From a virus (Duplodnaviria > Heunggongvirae > Uroviricota > Caudoviricetes): a stretch of 19,665 nt of DNA. Each line of letters opens with the position of its first letter. Within the stretch, counting starts at the first letter, position 1. The notes beneath the pieces are model-generated. The model had not been told where the DNA came from. It was given only the letters and a program-made list of their open reading frames with translations, and searched no databases. The position numbers and the translations under genes are program-made. Positions 1 through 13,394 of this stretch are shown one piece after another. The stretch is from positions 1 through 19,665 of IMG/VR virus record IMGVR_UViG_2740892322_000001; one strand, 5' to 3'.

Positions 1-260
1 AATTTCCCTTTGCATACCAGGGCAAAACCTTTCCAGCCGATATACACCGTCAGGACAGCGCCACGAACCGGCAGCCCGACCTGCCCGTCGGCATCGTTCA
101 GTTCAATATCAAGCTGGTCAGCCTCAAAGCCCCGGTTATCCGTCAGGGTCATACTCATCAGACGGTCGCTGATATTGCCGGTAATATCCCTGCTGTCGAG
201 CATCAGCATGTAATCCGGCGTCAGCGTACTGCCTGCATCAAATGTCAGCGTATCCAGCAT
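1..260 (-). CDS. D: P2 gpD-like tail protein, N-terminal part only; gene runs off the left edge of the window
   Basis: Hand translation of the minus strand from ATG at 258-260 gives MLDTLTFDAGSTLTPDYMLMLDSRDITGNISDRLMSMTLTDNRGFEADQLDIELNDADGQVGLPVRGAVLTVYIGWKGFALVCKGK, recalled as the gpD N-terminus. The start overlaps the U stop (TAATG). Not in the ORF track because it has no stop in the window. Confidence 0.8.
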   Translation of the reverse strand, partial: MLDTLTFDAGSTLTPDYMLMLDSRDITGNISDRLMSMTLTDNRGFEADQLDIELNDADGQVGLPVRGAVLTVYIGWKGFALVCKGK

Positions 261-561
261 TATCCCGCCCCCGTCATACCTGTGAATCTGGTCGCCATAC
301 TGCCAGCCTTACCGATGAGCGACTCCGCCTGTTTACCGATATCGCCATAAAGCGCGGCCAGTGATTCATCAACGCGGGTGAGCGACAGCGTAAAATCAAT
401 TTTCCGGGGTGTGCCGTCTGCAAAGAAAATCCGAGAAACTGGTAGGCATCCCGTTTACCGATACGGGAATTTGACGGCCAGCGATAATCTGATTCACGCT
501 GCATGGTCTGGTGTGGCAGCGTCTGGCGCATAAAAACAAACATACCTAACGCGAGCATCAT
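261..561 (-). pseudogene. U: gpU-like tail protein, frame-disrupted: N-terminal 44 aa in one frame, C-terminal ~57 aa in another, about 60 codons missing relative to P2 gpU
   Basis: ATGATG start at 556-561 with strong SD AAGGAGGTGA. The track ORF 274..561 reads gpU-like to ...YQFLG, then turns Arg/Ser/Cys-rich with rare codons. A different frame reads IFFADGTPRKIDFTLSLTRVDESLAALYGDIGKQAESLIGKAGSMATRFTGMTGAG with common codons, ending at TAA 261-263 overlapping the D start. P2 gpU recalled as ~159 aa. Confidence 0.55.
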
Positions 562-615
562 TTTTCGTCACCTCCTTAACCGTCATGCATCATGCTGGCA
601 CGGGCGCGCGCACGT

Positions 616-2862
616 TTATCCCGCTCGTATTTTTCGAGCGCCACCGGTGCCATACGTGGCGGCATGAGTTCTGGCGGCGGTCTGGTCAAGTGTGTCTGAC
701 TCTTTGTTGATGACCCCGAGCTTTTCCAGTACCCAGTCAATGCCGCTGCGTAATTTGTTGAACGCATTAAGCGGCAGCATCAGCGCGTCAGCCAGTGCCT
801 GCCCGAACATGACGCCCGTGTCACGGCAACGGTTCAGGGTGTCCTGGGTGGCTTTGACCGGTGCAATCAGGTTTTTAAACCACTGCCACGCGGCCTGTAA
901 CTTTTCGCCCAGCCAGTCAAACACCGGCTTAAGTGGCGTGAACAGTTCTCCCACCGGAGCAAATGCCGCTTTCAGCCCTTCCACCACACCGCCAAAGAAT
1001 GCGCTGACAGGCTCCCAGTATTTACGGATAAGCAACGCCCCGGCGACAATGGCAGCCACCACGGCCACAACCGGCCAGCTAATCGCCCCGATGGCCGTCA
1101 TAACGGCACTACCAACCGTCGTGAAGATTGCCCCCATTGCGCCTGCTGCCGCGATGATGGCATTGATGCCGGTGATAACCGGCCAGGCCACGAGGCCAAT
1201 GGCACCGATGATGCCAGTAAGCGCCAGTGCGCCACCGGCAATGAGACCAATGGTTGACGCCAGTGATTTGTTTTTCTGTATCCAGCCGTCGAGTTTTAAC
1301 ACATACTTTGTGGCCGTCTGCATGAGCTTACGCAGTGCGCCTTCCTGCTGGTCAAACAGGTCAGTCCCCACCGCCTCATAAGCGGACTGAAACTCCTTAA
1401 AGTCACCGCCGAGATTGTCCTGCATGATATTTACCAGCTCTGCGGTCTTCCCGTCTGAGGCTTTAAACGCAGCGGTCAGTTTGTCCAGCTTTCCGGTTGA
1501 GGCGGCAGTCATCAGCACGGCGGCGGCTGAGCTGGCCTCCTCCCCGAAAATGGTTTTCATGTATTCAGCCTGCTGGGCAGTACCGAGCCGGTTTTTCTCA
1601 AAACTGGCCTGCATTTCTTTCAGAATGGTAAATACTGGTCGGGTATTCCCTTTACTGTCTGAGGTTTTCACGCCAAGCTCTTTGAGTGCATCCCATGCTT
1701 TTCCCGTTGGTGCCTGCAGGCGACTTAACACGGCACGGCTTCCCGTCCCCGCCATTGAGCCTGTGATTTTTGCATCATGCAGCGCCCCGACCATTGCGGC
1801 GGTTTCTTCAATGCTGACACCGGCATTTTTTGCCACTGGTGCGGCATAGGTCAGCGCATCGCTCATGCCGTCAAAATCGGCGGCGGTTTTGTTCATCGTC
1901 ATGGAGAGAACATCCCCGATATGAGCGACCTTATCGTTTGAAAGCTGAAAGGCGGATTTCATCCCCATCAGCAGGGCGGCGTTTTCTTCCATCGTGCGGC
2001 GGTTCGCCAGTGCCATATTCAGCGTGACCGGCGTTGCCGCCTGAATGGCATCAACATCCCCACCGGCTTTCGCAATGATAATCTGTGCACCGGCTGCATC
2101 ATCCGCCGAGGCGGCAGTATTGTCACCGAGCTGGCGCGCCTGCTTGCGGAGTGCGGCCATTTCGGCGGAGTCTTTTGCCACACCTAGCACGGCCTGCAAT
2201 TCTGAGTTTTTCTGCGCAAACTCATAACCGGGCATCAGTAGCTTAACACCGGCCATCGTTCCCGCCGCCGCAATCCCCACACCGGCAGCGCCCACTGAGG
2301 CCATATTTCCGGCCAGTTCCTTTCCGGACTGATAACGCTGTTTTACTGCGTTAAGTTTTGCCTGTTGCGCACTGACACGCGCCAGCGCGTCGCGCTGACG
2401 GTTAAGCTGTGCGGTGGTTTCACTGATACGGTTTTTCAGTCCCTGCTCATCATGTGCAAGATTGCGGGTATTAATTCCCACAGCGGCCAGTTCCCGCTGC
2501 TGGCGTTTAACGGAATCCGTCAGGCGGTTATATTTCGCCTGTAAGTCCTCCGCCGCACGCTTTGCGGATTCCAGCACTTTCGCCTGAGCACGGGTCGGAC
2601 GTTCGGTGTTTTTAAACTGTGTGGCAAGGGCTTCGGCTTCCTGCCGAGCCTTTTCAAGTGCATGACCAGTCACGGCGAGCTGTGCACTGGTCTTGCGAAA
2701 TCCCTCAATACGGGATGCGTGACCGTTCAGCTCGCGCAGTGATTTTTGTGTGTCCCGGATATCCCCCGACAGCGACTTACTCGCTGTACGGATGGATTTA
2801 AACGGGCGGGATGCCTGGTCAACAGCCCTGAGCAATACCTGTAATTTTACATTGTTACTCAT
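616..2862 (-). CDS. T: tail tape measure protein (P2 gpT-like); C-terminal end probably frameshifted, see findings
   Basis: 748 aa ORF with coiled-coil Ala/Gln-rich N-terminal half and Gly/Ala-rich hydrophobic segments typical of tape measure proteins. Sits after E/E' as in P2. Start ATG 2860-2862 overlaps the E' stop. Confidence 0.85.
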   Translation of the reverse strand: MSNNVKLQVLLRAVDQASRPFKSIRTASKSLSGDIRDTQKSLRELNGHASRIEGFRKTSAQLAVTGHALEKARQEAEALATQFKNTERPTRAQAKVLESAKRAAEDLQAKYNRLTDSVKRQQRELAAVGINTRNLAHDEQGLKNRISETTAQLNRQRDALARVSAQQAKLNAVKQRYQSGKELAGNMASVGAAGVGIAAAGTMAGVKLLMPGYEFAQKNSELQAVLGVAKDSAEMAALRKQARQLGDNTAASADDAAGAQIIIAKAGGDVDAIQAATPVTLNMALANRRTMEENAALLMGMKSAFQLSNDKVAHIGDVLSMTMNKTAADFDGMSDALTYAAPVAKNAGVSIEETAAMVGALHDAKITGSMAGTGSRAVLSRLQAPTGKAWDALKELGVKTSDSKGNTRPVFTILKEMQASFEKNRLGTAQQAEYMKTIFGEEASSAAAVLMTAASTGKLDKLTAAFKASDGKTAELVNIMQDNLGGDFKEFQSAYEAVGTDLFDQQEGALRKLMQTATKYVLKLDGWIQKNKSLASTIGLIAGGALALTGIIGAIGLVAWPVITGINAIIAAAGAMGAIFTTVGSAVMTAIGAISWPVVAVVAAIVAGALLIRKYWEPVSAFFGGVVEGLKAAFAPVGELFTPLKPVFDWLGEKLQAAWQWFKNLIAPVKATQDTLNRCRDTGVMFGQALADALMLPLNAFNKLRSGIDWVLEKLGVINKESDTLDQTAARTHAATYGTGGARKIRAG

Positions 2863-3282
2863 TCGTGTTTCCGCTTCGCCGGAGCGCCTTTTCGCGCCAT
2901 GTGATGAGTTCGGTCAGGCTCATGGGATACAGTTCTGATGGCGGCCAGTGAAATATCACTGCCACATCCGCCATCAGGTCATCGACCGAGAGATTTTTCG
3001 GAAACGTCACTGCACCGAGTTCGGCGACAAAAAACCGACCACCTTACCGGCCAGCGCCACAAGGTCAGGCAGTTCCAGCGCGGCGACTTCCTGCTCGGTC
3101 AGCATCGGTGCCGTCATGCGCGGCAGCACCTTAATCAGTGCATCGACTTCGGAGTTTGCAACCGCAGCCAGACTGACACCGCGCAGCGTCCCGGCATTGG
3201 GTTTCATCAGCGTGACCTTTTCGATAACCTGCTCACCACGTTTGACCGGATTTTCCAGGGTAATGACATTTTCTTTGTTCAT
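2855..3282 (-). CDS. E+E': tail assembly chaperone gpE+E', made by programmed -1 ribosomal frameshift at 3028-3034
   Basis: Hand translation: after the slip the -1 frame reads VAELGAVTFPKNLSVDDLMADVAVIFHWPPSELYPMSLTELITWREKALRRSGNTNE and stops at TAA 2855-2857, overlapping the T start. Total about 142 aa, as recalled for P2 E+E'. Confidence 0.7.
3007..3282 (-). CDS. E: tail assembly chaperone gpE
   Basis: 91 aa, same length as P2 gpE. Contains the T_TTT_TTG slippery heptamer near its 3' end. Position between FII and T. Confidence 0.85.
   Translation of the reverse strand: MNKENVITLENPVKRGEQVIEKVTLMKPNAGTLRGVSLAAVANSEVDALIKVLPRMTAPMLTEQEVAALELPDLVALAGKVVGFLSPNSVQ
3028..3034 (-). promoter_or_regulatory. 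slippery heptamer T_TTT_TTG for the E/E' -1 frameshift
   Basis: Minus-strand codons GGT TTT TTG (G F L) in the E frame at 3036-3028; X_XXY_YYZ pattern characteristic of tail chaperone frameshift sites. Confidence 0.7.
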
Positions 3283-3338
3283 GGTTTTCTCACTTCTGAA
3301 TCAGGGTTAACCGGTCAGCCTGGCTGACCGGATGAAAA

Positions 3339-3857
3339 TCACAGGCCGATATTGCGGCGGTGTTGCTCCAGTCGGTCGACGCCGTTCACCTTCTCAATCA
3401 TGTTGATGGTGTCGATTTCGACCAGCTCCTTACCGTCCATCGTCAGCCGGAAATAGGTGCAGACCACGGAGATTTTCGACTCAGTGTCTTCTCCCTGTTT
3501 CCCCTCGCCGGTGTCGATTTCTTTCTGACGGCCACGCATGACCACCTCGACGGCCACCGTTTCGCCGGTATCGTCGCGCTGGTAAGAGCCTGCAAAACGA
3601 ATCGGCACGGCATCCACACCGGTTGCGGCGTAAAGCTCCCAGATAACCGAATCCGGGAAGCCCCCGAGCGACCACTCCATTGACAGCGCATCGTCATCAA
3701 GGCCGAGGTCTACCGGTGCGCTGCCGTTCATCCCCGCACCGCGATAGTTTTCGAGCTTACGGGTCAGTTTTGGCAGCGTGACGGACTTTGCAACGCCCTG
3801 ATAGCTGTAGCCGTTCAGAAAGACGTTCATTAACTTGAGTTTGCGCGGCATTGCCAT
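3339..3857 (-). CDS. FII: tail tube protein (P2 gpFII-like)
   Basis: 172 aa, same length as P2 FII, immediately downstream of the sheath gene. Confidence 0.9.
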   Translation of the reverse strand: MAMPRKLKLMNVFLNGYSYQGVAKSVTLPKLTRKLENYRGAGMNGSAPVDLGLDDDALSMEWSLGGFPDSVIWELYAATGVDAVPIRFAGSYQRDDTGETVAVEVVMRGRQKEIDTGEGKQGEDTESKISVVCTYFRLTMDGKELVEIDTINMIEKVNGVDRLEQHRRNIGL

Positions 3858-3869
3858 CGGTCAGGCTCC

Positions 3870-5060
3870 TTAATTGCTGTTAACCGAGGTGACCAGATTT
3901 GCCAGGTATTTATCGGTAATACGCTGGCGCAGGGTCAGGTTTTCAAGAGGAGGCACCGGGGTATAGTCGTAGTCGATATACAGTTTTCCGGCCTTGAGGG
4001 TTTCCGCATCGTTGGATTCTTCGCTGAACCAGCAGGTCGCATCCACGATATAGCCGTTTGTTTTCAGCTCACGGAATTTGGCATTAATGCCGTCAACGAT
4101 GTCGCGAATCAGCGTTGCGGTGATGGGCTTATCCACCGCCCACATGTGCGCCTCAGCCATCGTGTCGGCCAGCACCTGCGCGGTGCGGGTGTAGTTTTCA
4201 AAGAGGAACAGCGGGTCATCGGAGCAGGTACGGTTACCCCAGAAGCGGAAACCGTCGCGGCGAATCAGCGTTGTGACGCCTGACTCGTTAAGCAGGTCAG
4301 CATCGGTGCCGGACTCCTGCAAATCCCAGAATACAGAGGCGCTGATGCCGGTAACACCGTTCACCCCAACGTTGGACAGCGTTTTATGCCAGCCCTGCTC
4401 CTGGTCGATTTTAGCGCGCAGACCCAGCGCACGGGCGGTGGCATACGCGGTGGCGGTGGTACTGGTGACCGTATCCCATGCGAGGAAATCCGGCCAGATG
4501 ACCATCAGCTCACGCTGGCTGAAATTCTGGCGGTAGGCTTTCACCTCGGAAATGGTCTTACATCCCCATGCGCTGATATACCCGAAAGCACGCAGCTTCT
4601 GACAGACTGATGCCAGTGCAACAGCCACCTCTTTGGTGTCCAGTCCCGGCACGCCGAGAATACGCGGTTTAACACCAGTTACCGACTCCGCCGCCAGCAG
4701 GGCTTTCAGTCCGGTGTACTGACCGTTTTCGTCGGTGGTGCCGATGATATTGGAAACGGTCTGCGCGAGTTTCGTTTCCTCGTCGTCGCCGGTGCCGTCT
4801 TCCACACGCACGACAACGGTGACCGGTTTTGACTGGTCGGCGATAGCCTGCAACGATGCCGCCAGCGTGCCTTTTTTACCGGCCTTTGCAATCGCGCTCT
4901 GCACATTGGTAATCAGCACCGGTTTATTGAGGGGGAAGGTTTCCGCATCCGCATCGCTGGCCGTGCAGACCATGCCGACAATGGCGGTGGATACGGTGGA
5001 AATGACGCGGGTGCCGTCGTTAATCTCCAGCACCTGCACGCCATGATGATAGTCGCTCAT
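3870..5060 (-). CDS. FI: contractile tail sheath protein (P2 gpFI-like)
   Basis: 396 aa, same length as P2 FI. GGAG SD upstream of ATG at 5058-5060. Confidence 0.9.
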   Translation of the reverse strand: MSDYHHGVQVLEINDGTRVISTVSTAIVGMVCTASDADAETFPLNKPVLITNVQSAIAKAGKKGTLAASLQAIADQSKPVTVVVRVEDGTGDDEETKLAQTVSNIIGTTDENGQYTGLKALLAAESVTGVKPRILGVPGLDTKEVAVALASVCQKLRAFGYISAWGCKTISEVKAYRQNFSQRELMVIWPDFLAWDTVTSTTATAYATARALGLRAKIDQEQGWHKTLSNVGVNGVTGISASVFWDLQESGTDADLLNESGVTTLIRRDGFRFWGNRTCSDDPLFLFENYTRTAQVLADTMAEAHMWAVDKPITATLIRDIVDGINAKFRELKTNGYIVDATCWFSEESNDAETLKAGKLYIDYDYTPVPPLENLTLRQRITDKYLANLVTSVNSN

Positions 5061-5494: not shown

Positions 5495-6604
5495 TTAATC
5501 TGAGTCCATTTTCCCAAACTCTGTCAGGCCGAAAACGGAGCTACCAGAAACATGAGCTTGTAAGCCCGCTTCCTGCATGTCACTTAATTCAACTTCTTGG
5601 CTATCCTCTAATCCGATAGAGAACATGGGATAGGCCCAGTTCCAATTCGGATCAGGAACCAAACTATTATTCTCTATCTTGAAAAAGCTGACCATGAGAT
5701 GATGCCTTCCCTGTATCGCCTCTTCATCATTGATGTTGACCAGTACACCAAAGTGCTTGTAGCCGGCTTGTCCATTCTCGAACATTTTTATCTTGGTGCC
5801 GTTTCTGAACATCCAAAAAGAATGATTTCCAGTGGAATCAGCGACCTGCAAGTTATCTTCGTCAATTTCCCAATTAAGATATTGTTTGATATCAGACTTT
5901 GGTTTGAGTTTTTCGTCATTACTAAACCATTGTATTGCCGGAAGTGGAAGGTGAAGACCTTCCGGCTGGGGAGGCTGACCTGCAGCAATGGAATGCATGA
6001 TCTCTGTCATTGATGGAAGCCCCATCAAATGCCATACATCATGGATATCCTTTTTAAGTATAAGAAGCCCTTTGGATACACCATCCGCGTAAGTTGACTT
6101 TAAGCGGACTAGTATGTCCTTGTTACCATCTTTGTCGAGGTCTTCAATGTTTACTGAAGAAGCCACAACCTCGTCGTCCCCTGCGTCTGGGATGATTGCC
6201 CAATACCCAATATCGTAGAATCCAGGTCTGCCAACCACCTTATCTATCAAACTCTGTCCAGAGGGCTCGAAGACCATCAGGAAACGGCTAAGGGCACCAT
6301 TTGTGCTCACAGTTCTTCCGTAGACTACAACGGAGTTTGAGGTGCTTAGATCGAGAGACTCGCTAGCCACTGAGTCAAACGCCACTGAGTCCAAATGTGT
6401 GGCAAGCTGCTGCTGGATGCACTCCCGAGCCATTTCAACTAATTTTTCGCGAACATCAGCAGATCGTATTGGCTGTGAAGTGAAATGGAAAAGCCCTACT
6501 GTAGCCGCTATGCCTATTATTCCCGAAATAACGGTACTTAGAACCTGCTCCTTTACCACTTTCACAACTTTCATCAATAGCTTCTTCAACTTCACTTCAG
6601 GCAC
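5495..6604 (-). CDS. hypothetical membrane-anchored protein, cargo gene at the Z/fun-equivalent locus; candidate anti-phage or superinfection-exclusion function
   Basis: 369 aa ORF from GTG 6602-6604. A more likely start is ATG 6572-6574 (MKVVKVVKEQ..., 359 aa) with a GAAG-type SD. Hydrophobic segment LSTVISGIIGIAATVGLFHF near the N-terminus. AT-rich relative to flanking late genes. No recognisable family by eye. Confidence 0.7.
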   Translation of the reverse strand: MPEVKLKKLLMKVVKVVKEQVLSTVISGIIGIAATVGLFHFTSQPIRSADVREKLVEMARECIQQQLATHLDSVAFDSVASESLDLSTSNSVVVYGRTVSTNGALSRFLMVFEPSGQSLIDKVVGRPGFYDIGYWAIIPDAGDDEVVASSVNIEDLDKDGNKDILVRLKSTYADGVSKGLLILKKDIHDVWHLMGLPSMTEIMHSIAAGQPPQPEGLHLPLPAIQWFSNDEKLKPKSDIKQYLNWEIDEDNLQVADSTGNHSFWMFRNGTKIKMFENGQAGYKHFGVLVNINDEEAIQGRHHLMVSFFKIENNSLVPDPNWNWAYPMFSIGLEDSQEVELSDMQEAGLQAHVSGSSVFGLTEFGKMDSD

Positions 6605-7481: not shown

Positions 7482-10099
7482 TATGCAAGCCTCACAATAT
7501 AGTTAAATGCGATGTTTTTGACGGTGTTTTCGGTATTGCCAGTAGCATTTACGGTAATGGAATGCCCGTGTGAGCCAATAGCAACAGTGTGTGAATGTGC
7601 ACCAATACCAACAGTATGGTTATGTGCTCCAATGTCGACTGTATGTGCATGATTGCCTGATGAACTTGTAGTCGTAGCACCTTTATCACTTCGCGGAACA
7701 CCATAATCTGCACCGCCTGATTGCACGCTCACAGCAAAACCGACGGTATGTGTATGATTGCCAGAAGTATTGGTTGATTTTGTGCCGTGGTTAAACGTAC
7801 TGACTGTTTTTGTCCCGTAATCAAATGAACTGGTCGTTTTCGTTCCTAAGTCCGTATTTGACGCACTGGCGCTGTGAGTATGCGATTTAATCCCGTCCTG
7901 TTCCTGTGACAATACGGCACGCCCACTGGCGGGTTTGCCCTTGATTGTCCAGCCGCGCATATCTGGAATAACACCAGAAGGATAGGCAATAGCCAGTTTC
8001 GGATATGCTGCCTTATCAAACGTCTGTCCCTGCATGATTGCATAGCCTGCAGGCGGTGTATCTGATGGCCATGGCAGCGGAACACCTGGCGGAAATACTT
8101 CAATATTTGCCGAGCCGTCAAATTTCACGCCGTTAATTGTCCTTGCCGTTTTCAGCTTTGTTGCTGTAGCCGCATTGCCGGACAGTTCGCCTGAAAGACC
8201 ACCGCTGAATGTCTGTTTCGCCGCCCATGTCTGAGCTTCGTCGATAATTGGCACACGTCTTGTCGTGATCGTGCGGCTTCCCGGATTTCCTGAAATACGC
8301 ACCATAAAAAAGCGGTAATTCGCTTTACTTACAGTGCTGCGCCATACATGCATTGAGCGCCCCGTACCGGAATCATCACTCGGACCAACTGCGATGTTTA
8401 TCAGGTTGCCATCAATGACGCCCCAGTCCATACCGTCGGGAATGTTGGTCATGTTATCAAGCCGAACGGTTATCAGACTGCCCGGCACAAAGTCGTGGGT
8501 CTGCCAGTCCAGGCTGGTGAGCTTTGCCACTGCACCGCCGATACCCAGATTCAGGGGAAGTGAATACGAGGTGTAGACTTCCCGCCATTCGCTCCACGAG
8601 CTGCCGGTATAGACGCGCTCAAACGTGCGACCTTTAAGGGTTGCACCTGTTCCGGCAGTTGTATAACGCTGCCATACGTTAACACCATCAAAGCGCCTCA
8701 ACACTTCCAGAATACCGAGGACTGTCACGCCGTTTCCGTCCAGTATTGGACCGTTGGTCGCTTTACCTGTAACGCTGTAAATACCTGGTGAAGTCACATC
8801 ATTCAAATCCCCGTCGTAATAACGACTCTCTGACTGATGACCAACTCTTAACCACGGTTCCCACTGCGGATTTGATGCATCCCAGCTTGCCGCAAGGCAG
8901 CGGACGTACATATTTCCACGGCGAGTGGTATAACGTTGCGTTCTTCCATAATTCCCGCCTTCGAGGATCTCAAGCGTCCCCTGAGCAAAGCCGCCTTCCT
9001 CTGGATAATTGCGTTCATATGAAGCTATAGCCGAGCTACTGTTACGCCATAAACCAAGATGCTCGGCGGCTCCAAGCGTATTCAGGTCTATAGTCGTACT
9101 CAAAGGGCGGGTCGCTGATTGAGTGTGACGCCATACGCCCCACGGACCATCAGTGCCATTCCACTTATTGGCGAGTTTACGCATGTATACATTGCCGTCT
9201 CTTGTGGTAAAGCGTTGCGTACCTGCAAAATTGCCGGCAGCAAAAACCTCAAGCACACCGACAGCATTATCTTCCGGGAAATTTTTCTCCAGTGTTGCGT
9301 TGGTGGATGTTGCTTTAGACCAGATACCTGAATAAGCCTTAACAGGACCAAACGTATTCAGATCAGCATCAACCGGCATTTCGCCATTGTTTTTCATAAA
9401 CGTCAGGCTGGTAACGCCAACATTGTCCAGAAAAGCTGATTTATCCTGGATATCTGCACCGTTCTGATTTTTCGCCAGACGTGAATTTGCGTTGTCATTC
9501 GCAGCCTTGACCGCTTTTGGCGTTGCCGCCAGTGACTCACTGGTGCTGTTTGTTGCACTGCTTAACTGAGTAAAACCTTTCTCTGTCAGCGTGGCGTCAG
9601 GATGGCGGCGGGACTGCTCATGCTCTGCGATTTTGTCATCGACGTAATCCTGCGTCGCCATCACTGTGCTGGCATCAATACTCAGCTCAACGGACGCCAC
9701 GTTACTGAGAATAATAACCATGCGGCAGGTCTGCGCACGTCCGGAGCCTTCAGCCAGTTCTGGCTTATAGCTTTCTGCCATGTTGGATACCGCAATCAGT
9801 GTTCCGGCATCATCATACAGACCAAGCTCACGCATCCAGAAGCCGCCCACTTCTGGCGGAACAACCAGTTCAGCCACGATATAGTTTTTATTCTTGTTAT
9901 CCACACTGACTTTATTCAGAGCGTGACGCCAGACTTCATGCACCAGTTTCGTCTGACCGGCATCCGGCACCGGCAATTGGCCATTACCGTCACCCACAGC
10001 CATTGCAGACAGGTTTACTTTTTTCCCGCCGGGAACAGTAGCGGCTGCCAGCTTCGCGGCTCCGGCAGTAGTGATAACGGTTTTAAATTTCGTGCTCAT
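7481..10099 (-). CDS. H: tail fibre protein (gpH-like), mosaic: P2-H-like N-terminus, divergent repeat-containing distal region, His-x-His-rich C-terminus
   Basis: 872 aa (P2 H recalled as 669 aa). N-terminal ~200 aa [20 protein letters not shown]...[20 protein letters not shown] matches P2 H. C-terminus [36 protein letters not shown]...[11 protein letters not shown]. Confidence 0.85.
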
Positions 10100-10109
10100 T
10101 GTTTCTCAC

Positions 10110-10640
10110 TTATCCGGGATAAACAGTAATAACATCACCATCACAGACCACACCGCCTGTATACAGATAGCCGGGAATGTCCTGGATAATGTTCAGACCG
10201 ATAAGGTGGCGACTTGCGGGTTTGGCATCGGCAATCAGCCGTTCCATTTCCAGATACATCTCCTCCGTGATGCCGCTTTCCAGCACACCGATATCAAGGC
10301 GAAAGGTTCCGGGCGGGTCGTTTGTCTCCCACCATTCCTTTACGTTAATGAGATAGCCGAGCGGCTCCACCACACGCCGGATTGCGCCGATAGTGCCTTT
10401 ATGACAGTGGATGAAATAGGCATCGCGGATAACGGCGCGTTTTGTCGCTTCCGGCCACTTTTCATCCCACCTGTCGACCGAAAACGCCCACGCCAGCCAC
10501 GGCAGCAGATTTGCCGGGCAGGTGTCCGGGTTCCACAGCTCACGAATACTGACCGGCGTTTTTTCAATTTCCGCACAGGCTTTTGCGGCGGCGACCTCAA
10601 GCGGTGATGAGCCGGTCGGCAGCAGGCGCGAATCACTCAT
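10110..10640 (-). CDS. I: baseplate assembly protein (P2 gpI-like)
   Basis: 176 aa, same length as P2 I; overlaps the J stop by 8 nt. Confidence 0.85.
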   Translation of the reverse strand: MSDSRLLPTGSSPLEVAAAKACAEIEKTPVSIRELWNPDTCPANLLPWLAWAFSVDRWDEKWPEATKRAVIRDAYFIHCHKGTIGAIRRVVEPLGYLINVKEWWETNDPPGTFRLDIGVLESGITEEMYLEMERLIADAKPASRHLIGLNIIQDIPGYLYTGGVVCDGDVITVYPG

Positions 10641-11541
10641 CCGAGCCTCCGGTCACAACGCGGTATTCGGTACAGAAAGACGCCTGCGTATTGTTGAGCA
10701 CGATGTCGGCCAGTGGTGCAGCCAGTTCGACACGCTGCACGCCTTCCACATGCAAAGCGGCATAAATGGCAGACAGACGGATGTCGCGCCCCAGCCGGTG
10801 CTGTGCCGTGATGTACGCTTCCAGTTTTTTCACGGCAGCAGCGCGGATGGGTTCGCTTTCGGGACCAGGGTAAAGGTAAAGCGTGGCGTTTATCTGGTAT
10901 TCAACGATGGCGGCAGACTGCACGGTCACGCGGTCGGCCACCGGCCTGACGTCCTCACCATTAAGGGCGTTACGCACCACCGCCAGCAGGTCTTCGGAAG
11001 CGACACCGTTATTTTCACGTGACAGCACAGAGATGGTGACACAGGCCGGAGACGGACTGGTGACAGAGATATCCGCGACACGCCCGTCAGCACTGCGTCC
11101 ATGATACTGATAGGCACCCACCGACCCGGCGACGCTTAAACCTTCAAACGCCTGCTGAATACGCAGACGATAATCGGTGTCAGATTCCATCACTGCCGGT
11201 GTCGGCGGGATGGTCGAATCATCTGCCGGGGTGATAATCAGGCGCGTGGTGTTGTAATTGGCACCAATCACATCAAGGTCATTACCGGCGGCACAGGCCA
11301 GCATCACCGCCCGTGCGGCCTCATTCACACGCTGACGCCAGATAAGCTCACGATAAGCATTTTCCTCCAGCAGTTTGACGAGAGGCTCAGATTCCAGTGT
11401 CAGGGTACGGGCGACCGCCTCCTGCTGGTCTTCCGGGTAAAGGGAAATCAGTGTCGCCTTGCGTTCGGCAAGAATGGTTTCAAAGTCCAGCTCCTCGACC
11501 ACATCCGGTGCGGGTAGCTGGTTCAGGTCGATAATCGGCAT
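10633..11541 (-). CDS. J: baseplate assembly protein (P2 gpJ-like)
   Basis: 302 aa, same length as P2 J; follows W. Confidence 0.85.
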   Translation of the reverse strand: MPIIDLNQLPAPDVVEELDFETILAERKATLISLYPEDQQEAVARTLTLESEPLVKLLEENAYRELIWRQRVNEAARAVMLACAAGNDLDVIGANYNTTRLIITPADDSTIPPTPAVMESDTDYRLRIQQAFEGLSVAGSVGAYQYHGRSADGRVADISVTSPSPACVTISVLSRENNGVASEDLLAVVRNALNGEDVRPVADRVTVQSAAIVEYQINATLYLYPGPESEPIRAAAVKKLEAYITAQHRLGRDIRLSAIYAALHVEGVQRVELAAPLADIVLNNTQASFCTEYRVVTGGSDE

Positions 11542-11545
11542 GGTT

Positions 11546-11893
11546 TCAACTCACAGGGATGGTTAACGAAAGTGGCTGGCCGGTGTCGTTGTGCTGGCCG
11601 GTTAACGTGACCGTCATTCGCCCGTCAAAACTGCGCTCAGTGGTGACGGATGACAGGGTGACGCGGGGTTCCCATTTCAGCACCGCCATGTAACAGGCGA
11701 CCTTAATCTGCAACTCAAGCGCCGGGGTCTGCGGCTGGTCAATCATTGACGCCAGCAACGAGCCGTAATCACGACGCATCACCCGTGAGCCGACCGGTGT
11801 GCGCAGGATATCGCCGATACTCTGGCTGATATGCTCAAGGTCAGTGACAGTCAGGCCATCACTGCGATTCATTCCGAGATAACGCGCTGTCAT
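11546..11893 (-). CDS. W: baseplate wedge protein (P2 gpW-like)
   Basis: 115 aa, same length as P2 W; start overlaps the V stop by 4 nt. Confidence 0.85.
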   Translation of the reverse strand: MTARYLGMNRSDGLTVTDLEHISQSIGDILRTPVGSRVMRRDYGSLLASMIDQPQTPALELQIKVACYMAVLKWEPRVTLSSVTTERSFDGRMTVTLTGQHNDTGQPLSLTIPVS

Positions 11894-12525
11894 AAAGGAC
11901 TCCCGGTTGTGCCGCCGCTGTCGCCGGGGTGTTTATGGGTATGCAGTACCTTACCGTTTGATGAGAGTTCACCGCCGGTGTGTTCAATGTTGCCGCGCAT
12001 CGTCCCGCCCTTCTGCACTTCCAGCGTGCCGGTGATCAGCTTGTTTGTGCAGACCACCTCCGGCGTGTCCAGAGTGATGCGGGTTGATGCTTTCACCATG
12101 ACCACCGGCACCGTGGCAGTAACAGAATCAGAAGCCGTCACGCTGGCCGTTTTAATTCCGCTTACCGTAAGCGCACTGGTTTCGGGTTCATACTCAATCA
12201 CCGCCCCGTCAGGGAAACGGATATGCAGGGCATCCGCCGACGCAGACGGCGCAGGGTTATCGCCGGAATAAATCCCCGGCAGAACGAACGCCGTGTCGAG
12301 TTCACCGCCCACGGCCAGAATCAGCACCTGTTCCCCCACGGAAGGTGCCCACCATGTGCGCGAACGTCCGGCGCGATGGGTCAGCCACTGAAGCCAGTCG
12401 GTGCACATGCCGCCGGTCTGCACACGGCAGCGACCGGCGTTAAGGTCGGTTTCAACGATAATGCCGGTACGAATCATGTTGCGCAGTGCGCGCGCGAGTT
12501 CCTGAATATTTGCGAGAGTGTCCAT
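11890..12525 (-). CDS. V: baseplate spike / assembly protein (P2 gpV-like)
   Basis: Track ORF 11890..12543 begins at TTG. The likely true start is ATG 12523-12525 (MDTLANIQELARALRNM..., 211 aa), matching the recalled P2 V N-terminus and length. Confidence 0.85.
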   Translation of the reverse strand: MDTLANIQELARALRNMIRTGIIVETDLNAGRCRVQTGGMCTDWLQWLTHRAGRSRTWWAPSVGEQVLILAVGGELDTAFVLPGIYSGDNPAPSASADALHIRFPDGAVIEYEPETSALTVSGIKTASVTASDSVTATVPVVMVKASTRITLDTPEVVCTNKLITGTLEVQKGGTMRGNIEHTGGELSSNGKVLHTHKHPGDSGGTTGSPL

Positions 12526-12608: not shown

Positions 12609-13394
12609 ATGGTCAGCTATAATGTGACTAATGTGTGGGAGCTAATCGTTTTGTATCTTTTGGTCTTTGCAGTATTAGCATTTTTTAGCTTTGGTAAAAG
12701 TAACCTTATGAGGCTTATTGCACATTATTTCAAATTTGGATATTCAGACAAAAAATTAAAAAGACTGGACCGCGAGTGGCGCGACATTCAACTATTTAAA
12801 ATACTTAACGGAATCAATGTATCAGGCATCGAAGATGTGAGAATGATACAGCAGGGGCTGATTGATGGAAAACTAAAAACATCGGATTTTTTCCTTACTC
12901 GCTTCTGGGGAGACATAACAGAACCGCCATGCATCACAAAAACAATGAGTGCAGTCCTGGCCGGAATTCTTTATATTATCTTCGCATGTTGCATACACAA
13001 CGAGCAATCTGCCATAGTAGAGGATGCCATAGCCATACCATATAAAAATATGATGTACCATGTTTATAATGACAAGGTTCTTTTGTTCTCCGACAATAAA
13101 ACAGATAAGTTCTATAAAGCTTTTAGCATTGCCGATTGCAAGAGACTGCAGAACACTTTTGTAACAGACACACTTCCTGCAATCGCCTGCAATAAGCTCT
13201 TACAGCTAAACGAGGAGGACTCCGAATGGTTAAGTCAGGAGATTAAAGATAATAACAGCCACAGAAAAACATTATTAATAATATCCCTAATCTATTTCAT
13301 TTCAGGTCTATTTATATTCCTGTCATACACAAAATTCCTTTACGCCAATAAGAAGGTTTTAGAATACAAAGCATCAAATAAAAACCACTCATAA
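12609..13394 (+). CDS. hypothetical integral membrane protein (three predicted TM helices), cargo gene at the S/V junction (P2 orf30 position)
   Basis: 261 aa ORF with strong SD AAGGAG 6 nt before the ATG. Very AT-rich, Lys/Asn/Ile/Phe-rich. Hydrophobic segments ELIVLYLLVFAVLAFFSF, MSAVLAGILYIIFACCI and LLIISLIYFISGLFIFLSY. Opposite strand to all flanking late genes. Confidence 0.7.
   Translation: MVSYNVTNVWELIVLYLLVFAVLAFFSFGKSNLMRLIAHYFKFGYSDKKLKRLDREWRDIQLFKILNGINVSGIEDVRMIQQGLIDGKLKTSDFFLTRFWGDITEPPCITKTMSAVLAGILYIIFACCIHNEQSAIVEDAIAIPYKNMMYHVYNDKVLLFSDNKTDKFYKAFSIADCKRLQNTFVTDTLPAIACNKLLQLNEEDSEWLSQEIKDNNSHRKTLLIISLIYFISGLFIFLSYTKFLYANKKVLEYKASNKNHS

Follow-up and report, generated by a model that had tools for sequence, protein, structure and literature searches.

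Two frame-shifting gaps in the tail genes of a P2-like prophage contig are probably errors of draft assembly

Does the bacterium itself carry a broken tail gene U in this P2-like prophage, or is the gene broken only in the draft sequence? The window analysed here is the entire contig FBVS01000098.1, 19,665 bp long, from draft assembly GCA_001517685.1. A literature search by this assembly accession found no paper, and a published study of ST131 'tailocin' prophages covers other prophage regions (PMC9205054). An initial annotation of the window had described U as split across two reading frames and had noted that, if real, this would leave the prophage tail-defective unless complemented. We examined both parts of this description, the lesion and what it says about the prophage.

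The minus strand of window positions 1-5060 holds a P2-type late tail operon comprising the sheath and tube genes, E/E', the tape-measure gene T, U and the start of D. According to the open reading frames and the annotation of a collinear relative, the genes share one strand and follow the P2-type FETUD order, and U and D overlap at stop and start. As a reference we used the O25b:H4 (ST131-type) prophage at yegQ-yegR, represented by loci L001 and L003 and called copy 1 below. Apart from the gaps, the window and this prophage are collinear, and six SNPs and a 2-bp intergenic indel are all that separates them. A search with the first 1,500 bases of the window gave matches in 1,613 records from E. 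coli and 80 from phages. Among the matches listed, which include 100%-identical ST131-type chromosomes, all span 1,839 bp in three pieces.

The features at the U end of the contig are as follows.

Positions 1 to 260, minus strand: first 87 codons of D, the tail hub gene, which the contig end truncates (from the annotation of an identical relative).
Positions 260 to 430, minus strand: stranded C-terminal part of U, encoding gpU residues 104-159 followed by the native TAA, with no usable start codon of its own.
Positions 274 to 561, minus strand: truncated U reading frame of 95 aa, 44 of them native and 51 out of frame (from the ORF, alignment and Pfam).
Positions 430 to 431, minus strand: junction 2, at which 178 bp (L001 2732-2909) are gone, the first missing base being a site that differs from the second prophage described below.

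Closer analysis bears out the description of the lesion. The proposed start, ATGATG with a Shine-Dalgarno sequence, is present at 561-556 (minus strand) with AAGGAGGTGA upstream at 577-568, and both elements are those of the annotated intact gene. The initial annotation had read the first 44 residues as gpU-like, with the frame then lost up to a stop at 274; these 44 residues are indeed identical to intact gpU. The second frame, in which a gpU C-terminus ending on a TAA had been recognised, translates as IFFADGTPRKIDFTLSLTRVDESL...GAG*, and its TAA has one base in common with the D start (TAATG at window 262-258). Intact gpU has 159 aa, and the first 44 and last 56 residues retained in the window are both identical to gpU of the ST131 prophage. 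Residues 45-103 are absent, the frame is broken and the 56-codon C-terminus is left stranded. An internal, frame-changing loss of roughly 175 bp had been estimated; alignment to intact relatives gives exactly 178 bp (59 codons plus 1 nt) and places the junction at window 431|430, with no microhomology. The consequence for the protein can be read from the PF06995 (Phage_P2_GpU) profile. The intact relative matches profile positions 1-120 (E = 4.8e-44). The 95-aa product of the window still scores significantly (E = 1.2e-10; 41.5 bits against a cutoff of 27.5) but covers positions 1-44 of 120 only; no single reading frame carries the complete domain, the C-terminal remnant being in another frame.

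The initial annotation, which had listed assembly error as a possibility, missed a paired gap in T. The two gaps are of the same character and lie 211 bp apart. The features around the second gap are as follows.

Positions 616 to 2862, minus strand: truncated tape-measure reading frame T', 748 aa (from the ORF, alignment, Pfam and a protein look-up).
Positions 640 to 641, minus strand: junction 1, at which T lacks 161 bp in its 3' end; the exact join is ambiguous by one base, a G (from alignment).
Positions 431 to 641, minus strand: retained 211-bp block, L001 2521-2731 (from alignment; shared run L003 5320-5530).

Junction 1 lies at window 641|640. Depending on where the ambiguous G is counted, the missing segment of T is L001 2360-2520 or 2361-2521. 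T' consists of native residues 1-741 followed by ARKIRAG*, compared with 815 aa for T in intact relatives, and the last 74 native residues are lost (53 missing and about 21 out of frame). The PF10145 PhageMin_Tail domain is present in T' (E = 1.6e-45). The retained block between the gaps carries U codons 1-44 and the Shine-Dalgarno sequence preceding them, together with the end of T, of which the native stop (578-576) remains and the last codons have been put out of frame.

Taken at face value, these data describe ordinary decay, in which frame-shifting losses of 161 bp in T and 178 bp in U have left a prophage that makes no tails on its own. We consider this unlikely, although it has points in its favour: the gaps stand in the deposited record, where gene calling yields the 748-aa T', and broken gpU genes are common in databases. 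Among the latter are the frameshifted P0001-P0004 (139-154 aa), P0008 and P0009, and P0019, a 93-aa protein with an in-frame deletion. All of these retain '...FLGVGEEN...' after residue 44, and thus their junctions differ from that of the window. Intact gpU homologues sharing the window's junction, an outcome that the initial annotation had allowed for, were sought in a protein homologue search, and no database protein has it.

The nucleotide searches gave the same picture. We probed 5,426 complete E. coli genomes with 40-mers. A control taken from the retained part of U was present in 1,423, and the two 40-mers centred on the junctions were present in none. Both junctions were also absent from IMG/VR and the JGI metagenomes. 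By exact-protein look-up, the 95-aa U product has no record, and the 748-aa T' is recorded on FBVS01000098.1 only. Real deletions would thus have to be two private events, 211 bp apart and both near a contig end (the gaps lie 431 and 641 bp from it), with neither junction reproduced in any other genome searched. They would also have arisen without the microhomology typical of slippage. We looked for direct repeats at the deletion ends, the signature of replication slippage, and found none, with microhomology of a single base at junction 1 and of no base at junction 2.

What decides between the two readings is the position of the gap edges relative to another prophage. As a stand-in for a second copy, the P2 genome record NC_041848 (host strain T22) matched only two edges, and the comparison was therefore widened to 80 IMG/VR loci, giving 71 haplotypes together with P2. 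One locus, L031, differs from copy 1 in the T region at L001 2352, 2360, 2361, 2439, 2487 and 2520, shows zero differences across 2521-2731, and differs in the U region at 2732, 2735, 2789, 2813, 2825, 2855 and 2890. Further differences follow at five sites between 3035 and 3204, and at 3340. The T gap, read as 2360-2520, begins and finishes on sites that differ between the copies, and the U gap begins exactly on such a site (2732). Base 1 of the window is the last base before the differing site 3340 and the first base of a stretch common to both prophages. In all, four of the five block edges fall exactly on L031 differences. At least four matches in one haplotype were obtained in 4 of 20,000 random placements (~2e-4, or about 2 in 10,000 by chance) and with no rigid shift, which counts against real deletions.

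The L031 pattern led to a genome in which both prophages can be seen. The rare L031 allele at 2520, probed with a 40-mer, is present in 3 of the 5,426 genomes, and one of these is strain S14. S14 (H35) carries copy 1, 100% identical to the window across T-U-D, as well as a second prophage (copy 2) that adjoins fieF and has the L031 pattern. The 211 bp retained in the window are exactly the stretch identical in both S14 prophages, and the other end of the contig stops 114 bp into a 576-bp stretch that both have in common.

A deletion within one prophage has no reason to respect the sites at which another prophage differs, whereas an assembly graph containing both copies does; this favours an artefact. 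We consider it probable, at roughly 85%, that the T and U gaps are errors of the short-read draft assembly and not deletions in the bacterium, a judgement drawn from sequence comparison. The source isolate would probably carry two P2-like prophages, the one in the window at yegQ-yegR and another, about 97% identical to it across T-U-D and resembling the fieF-adjacent copy of S14. In stretches where the copies are identical, reads could not be assigned to one of them, and where the copies differ the assembly graph would fork. At the end of the contig, shared pieces appear to have been placed directly side by side by the assembler or scaffolder, and the copy-specific stretches between them dropped. 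The true prophage would then have an intact T (815 aa) and an intact U (159 aa). We infer the second prophage of the source isolate, which is seen directly only in the related complete genome S14, and likewise the software step behind the loss.

Real deletions draw some support from two edge details that do not fit an assembly artefact exactly. The U gap extends to L001 2909, 19 bp past the last S14-type difference (2890), and at 2352, a differing site 8 bp short of junction 1, the window keeps the copy-1 allele. The last 430 bp of the contig likewise present a difficulty, as they have copy-1 alleles at five differing sites, and this block is therefore not simply a shared piece. In addition, O25b copy 1 and S14 copy 2 are identical over 2,443 bp that include I, J, W and part of V (window about 9591-12033; L003 14641-17083), and the contig runs straight through this stretch. 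Either the second copy of the isolate differs there from that of S14, or the repeats were bridged in some other way; more generally, there may be small differences between the second copies of the isolate and of S14. The edges are offset by 114 bp at the far end, by 125-127 bp as judged from 2910 and 2360, and by 19 bp past 2890; a search for a single k-mer size gave no consistent solution, nor did we find one named assembler step that reproduces all edges.

The small differences between the window and copy 1 were examined against S14 copy 2. Four of the five alignable SNPs private to the window carry the copy-2 allele of S14. They are at window 2257, 16916, 18186 and 18468, four of the six SNPs relative to the O25b:H4 prophage, and each is flanked by copy-1 alleles at 9 to 88 bp. 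Tracts of copy-2 alleles, as expected from path switching, were looked for in the window, and only isolated single sites were found. Conversion over short tracts, recurrent polymorphism or errors of polishing could have produced these sites. They hint at copy-2-like sequence in the source isolate, although they are only suggestive.

The single indel is at window 13408 (plus strand), where a GA is absent relative to the O25b:H4 prophage (AAACATTGAGCGACC -> AAACATTGCGACC). It is intergenic, just 3' of a 261-aa cargo ORF, and lies inside an imperfect inverted repeat (AAACATTG...CAATGTTT); the region has no counterpart in the second prophage of S14. The cargo ORF itself (12609-13394, plus strand) lies between the baseplate gene V and the virion morphogenesis gene. 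On the opposite strand, another cargo ORF of 359 aa (5495-6574, minus strand) separates the tail-fibre assembly gene from the sheath gene and adjoins an IS3 remnant. In P2-like phages, such cargo positions often hold accessory or defence genes. Neither of the two ORFs has a Pfam or PADLOC match.

S14 itself provides indications of exchange between its co-resident P2-like prophages. The holin, lysozyme and LysB/LysC proteins of its copy 1 (L087) have the same accessions as those of copy 2 (L086), which indicates gene conversion between the copies. Copy 1 of S14 also has an ISEc12 insertion in the baseplate gene V.

Such exchange raises the possibility of real deletions guided by mismatches. Recombination between co-resident, ~97% identical prophages would form a heteroduplex, from which the tracts bounded by the outermost mismatches of each cluster would be removed without resynthesis and the ends rejoined. 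This would account for gap edges that lie on inter-copy differences, and the copy-2-type lysis genes of S14 copy 1 indicate that the exchange it starts from does occur. We nonetheless regard it as very improbable. An inter-copy difference also marks the end of the contig, a coincidence that only the assembly process explains, and there are no copy-2 alleles beside the junctions. We know of no repair pathway that removes a mismatch tract and religates the ends without resynthesis. Such a mechanism, if true, would be novel.

Assembly error being the reading we prefer, only part of the earlier interpretation stands. That the prophage is tail-defective follows if the contig is correct. The evidence points instead to assembly error, namely the location at a draft contig end, the unique junctions and the edges on inter-copy differences, and the inference of a defective prophage is probably wrong. 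If the sequence were true, the yegQ-yegR prophage would be without the tube initiator and the C-terminus of the tape measure, and its tails would depend on a second prophage. Both gpT and gpU could then come in trans from a co-resident P2-like prophage, and the case would be one of routine prophage biology. The wider implication is one of caution. When an essential gene is frameshifted near the end of a draft contig, and the genome is likely to have two similar prophages, read support is needed before decay is scored. Counts of 'defective' prophages and of pseudogenes based on short-read drafts will contain such cases.

Three known systems allow the locus to be placed. In P2, six copies of gpU sit on the gpD hub trimer and initiate the inner tube (bioRxiv 10.64898/2026.09.14.750843), and gpU is homologous to the C-terminal domain of the pyocin R2 'ripcord' protein PA0626 (PDB 6U5B chain h). 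The U of the window occupies the same position in the FI-FII-E-T-U-D operon as the tube initiator of P2 but, as deposited, is without residues 45-103 and in a broken frame. The other broken gpU genes (P0019 and P0001-P0004) are likewise P2-type gpU genes with internal lesions, and they show that prophage tail genes do decay in nature; none of them, however, has the window's junction or a paired lesion in T. The third comparison is with repeat-induced errors in short-read assemblies. Their usual outcome is a contig break or a run of N, whereas the pieces of the window are joined without N or overlap. The window resembles them in its gaps at a contig end, its edges on differences between copies, a retained block that corresponds to a shared stretch, and junctions that are unique.
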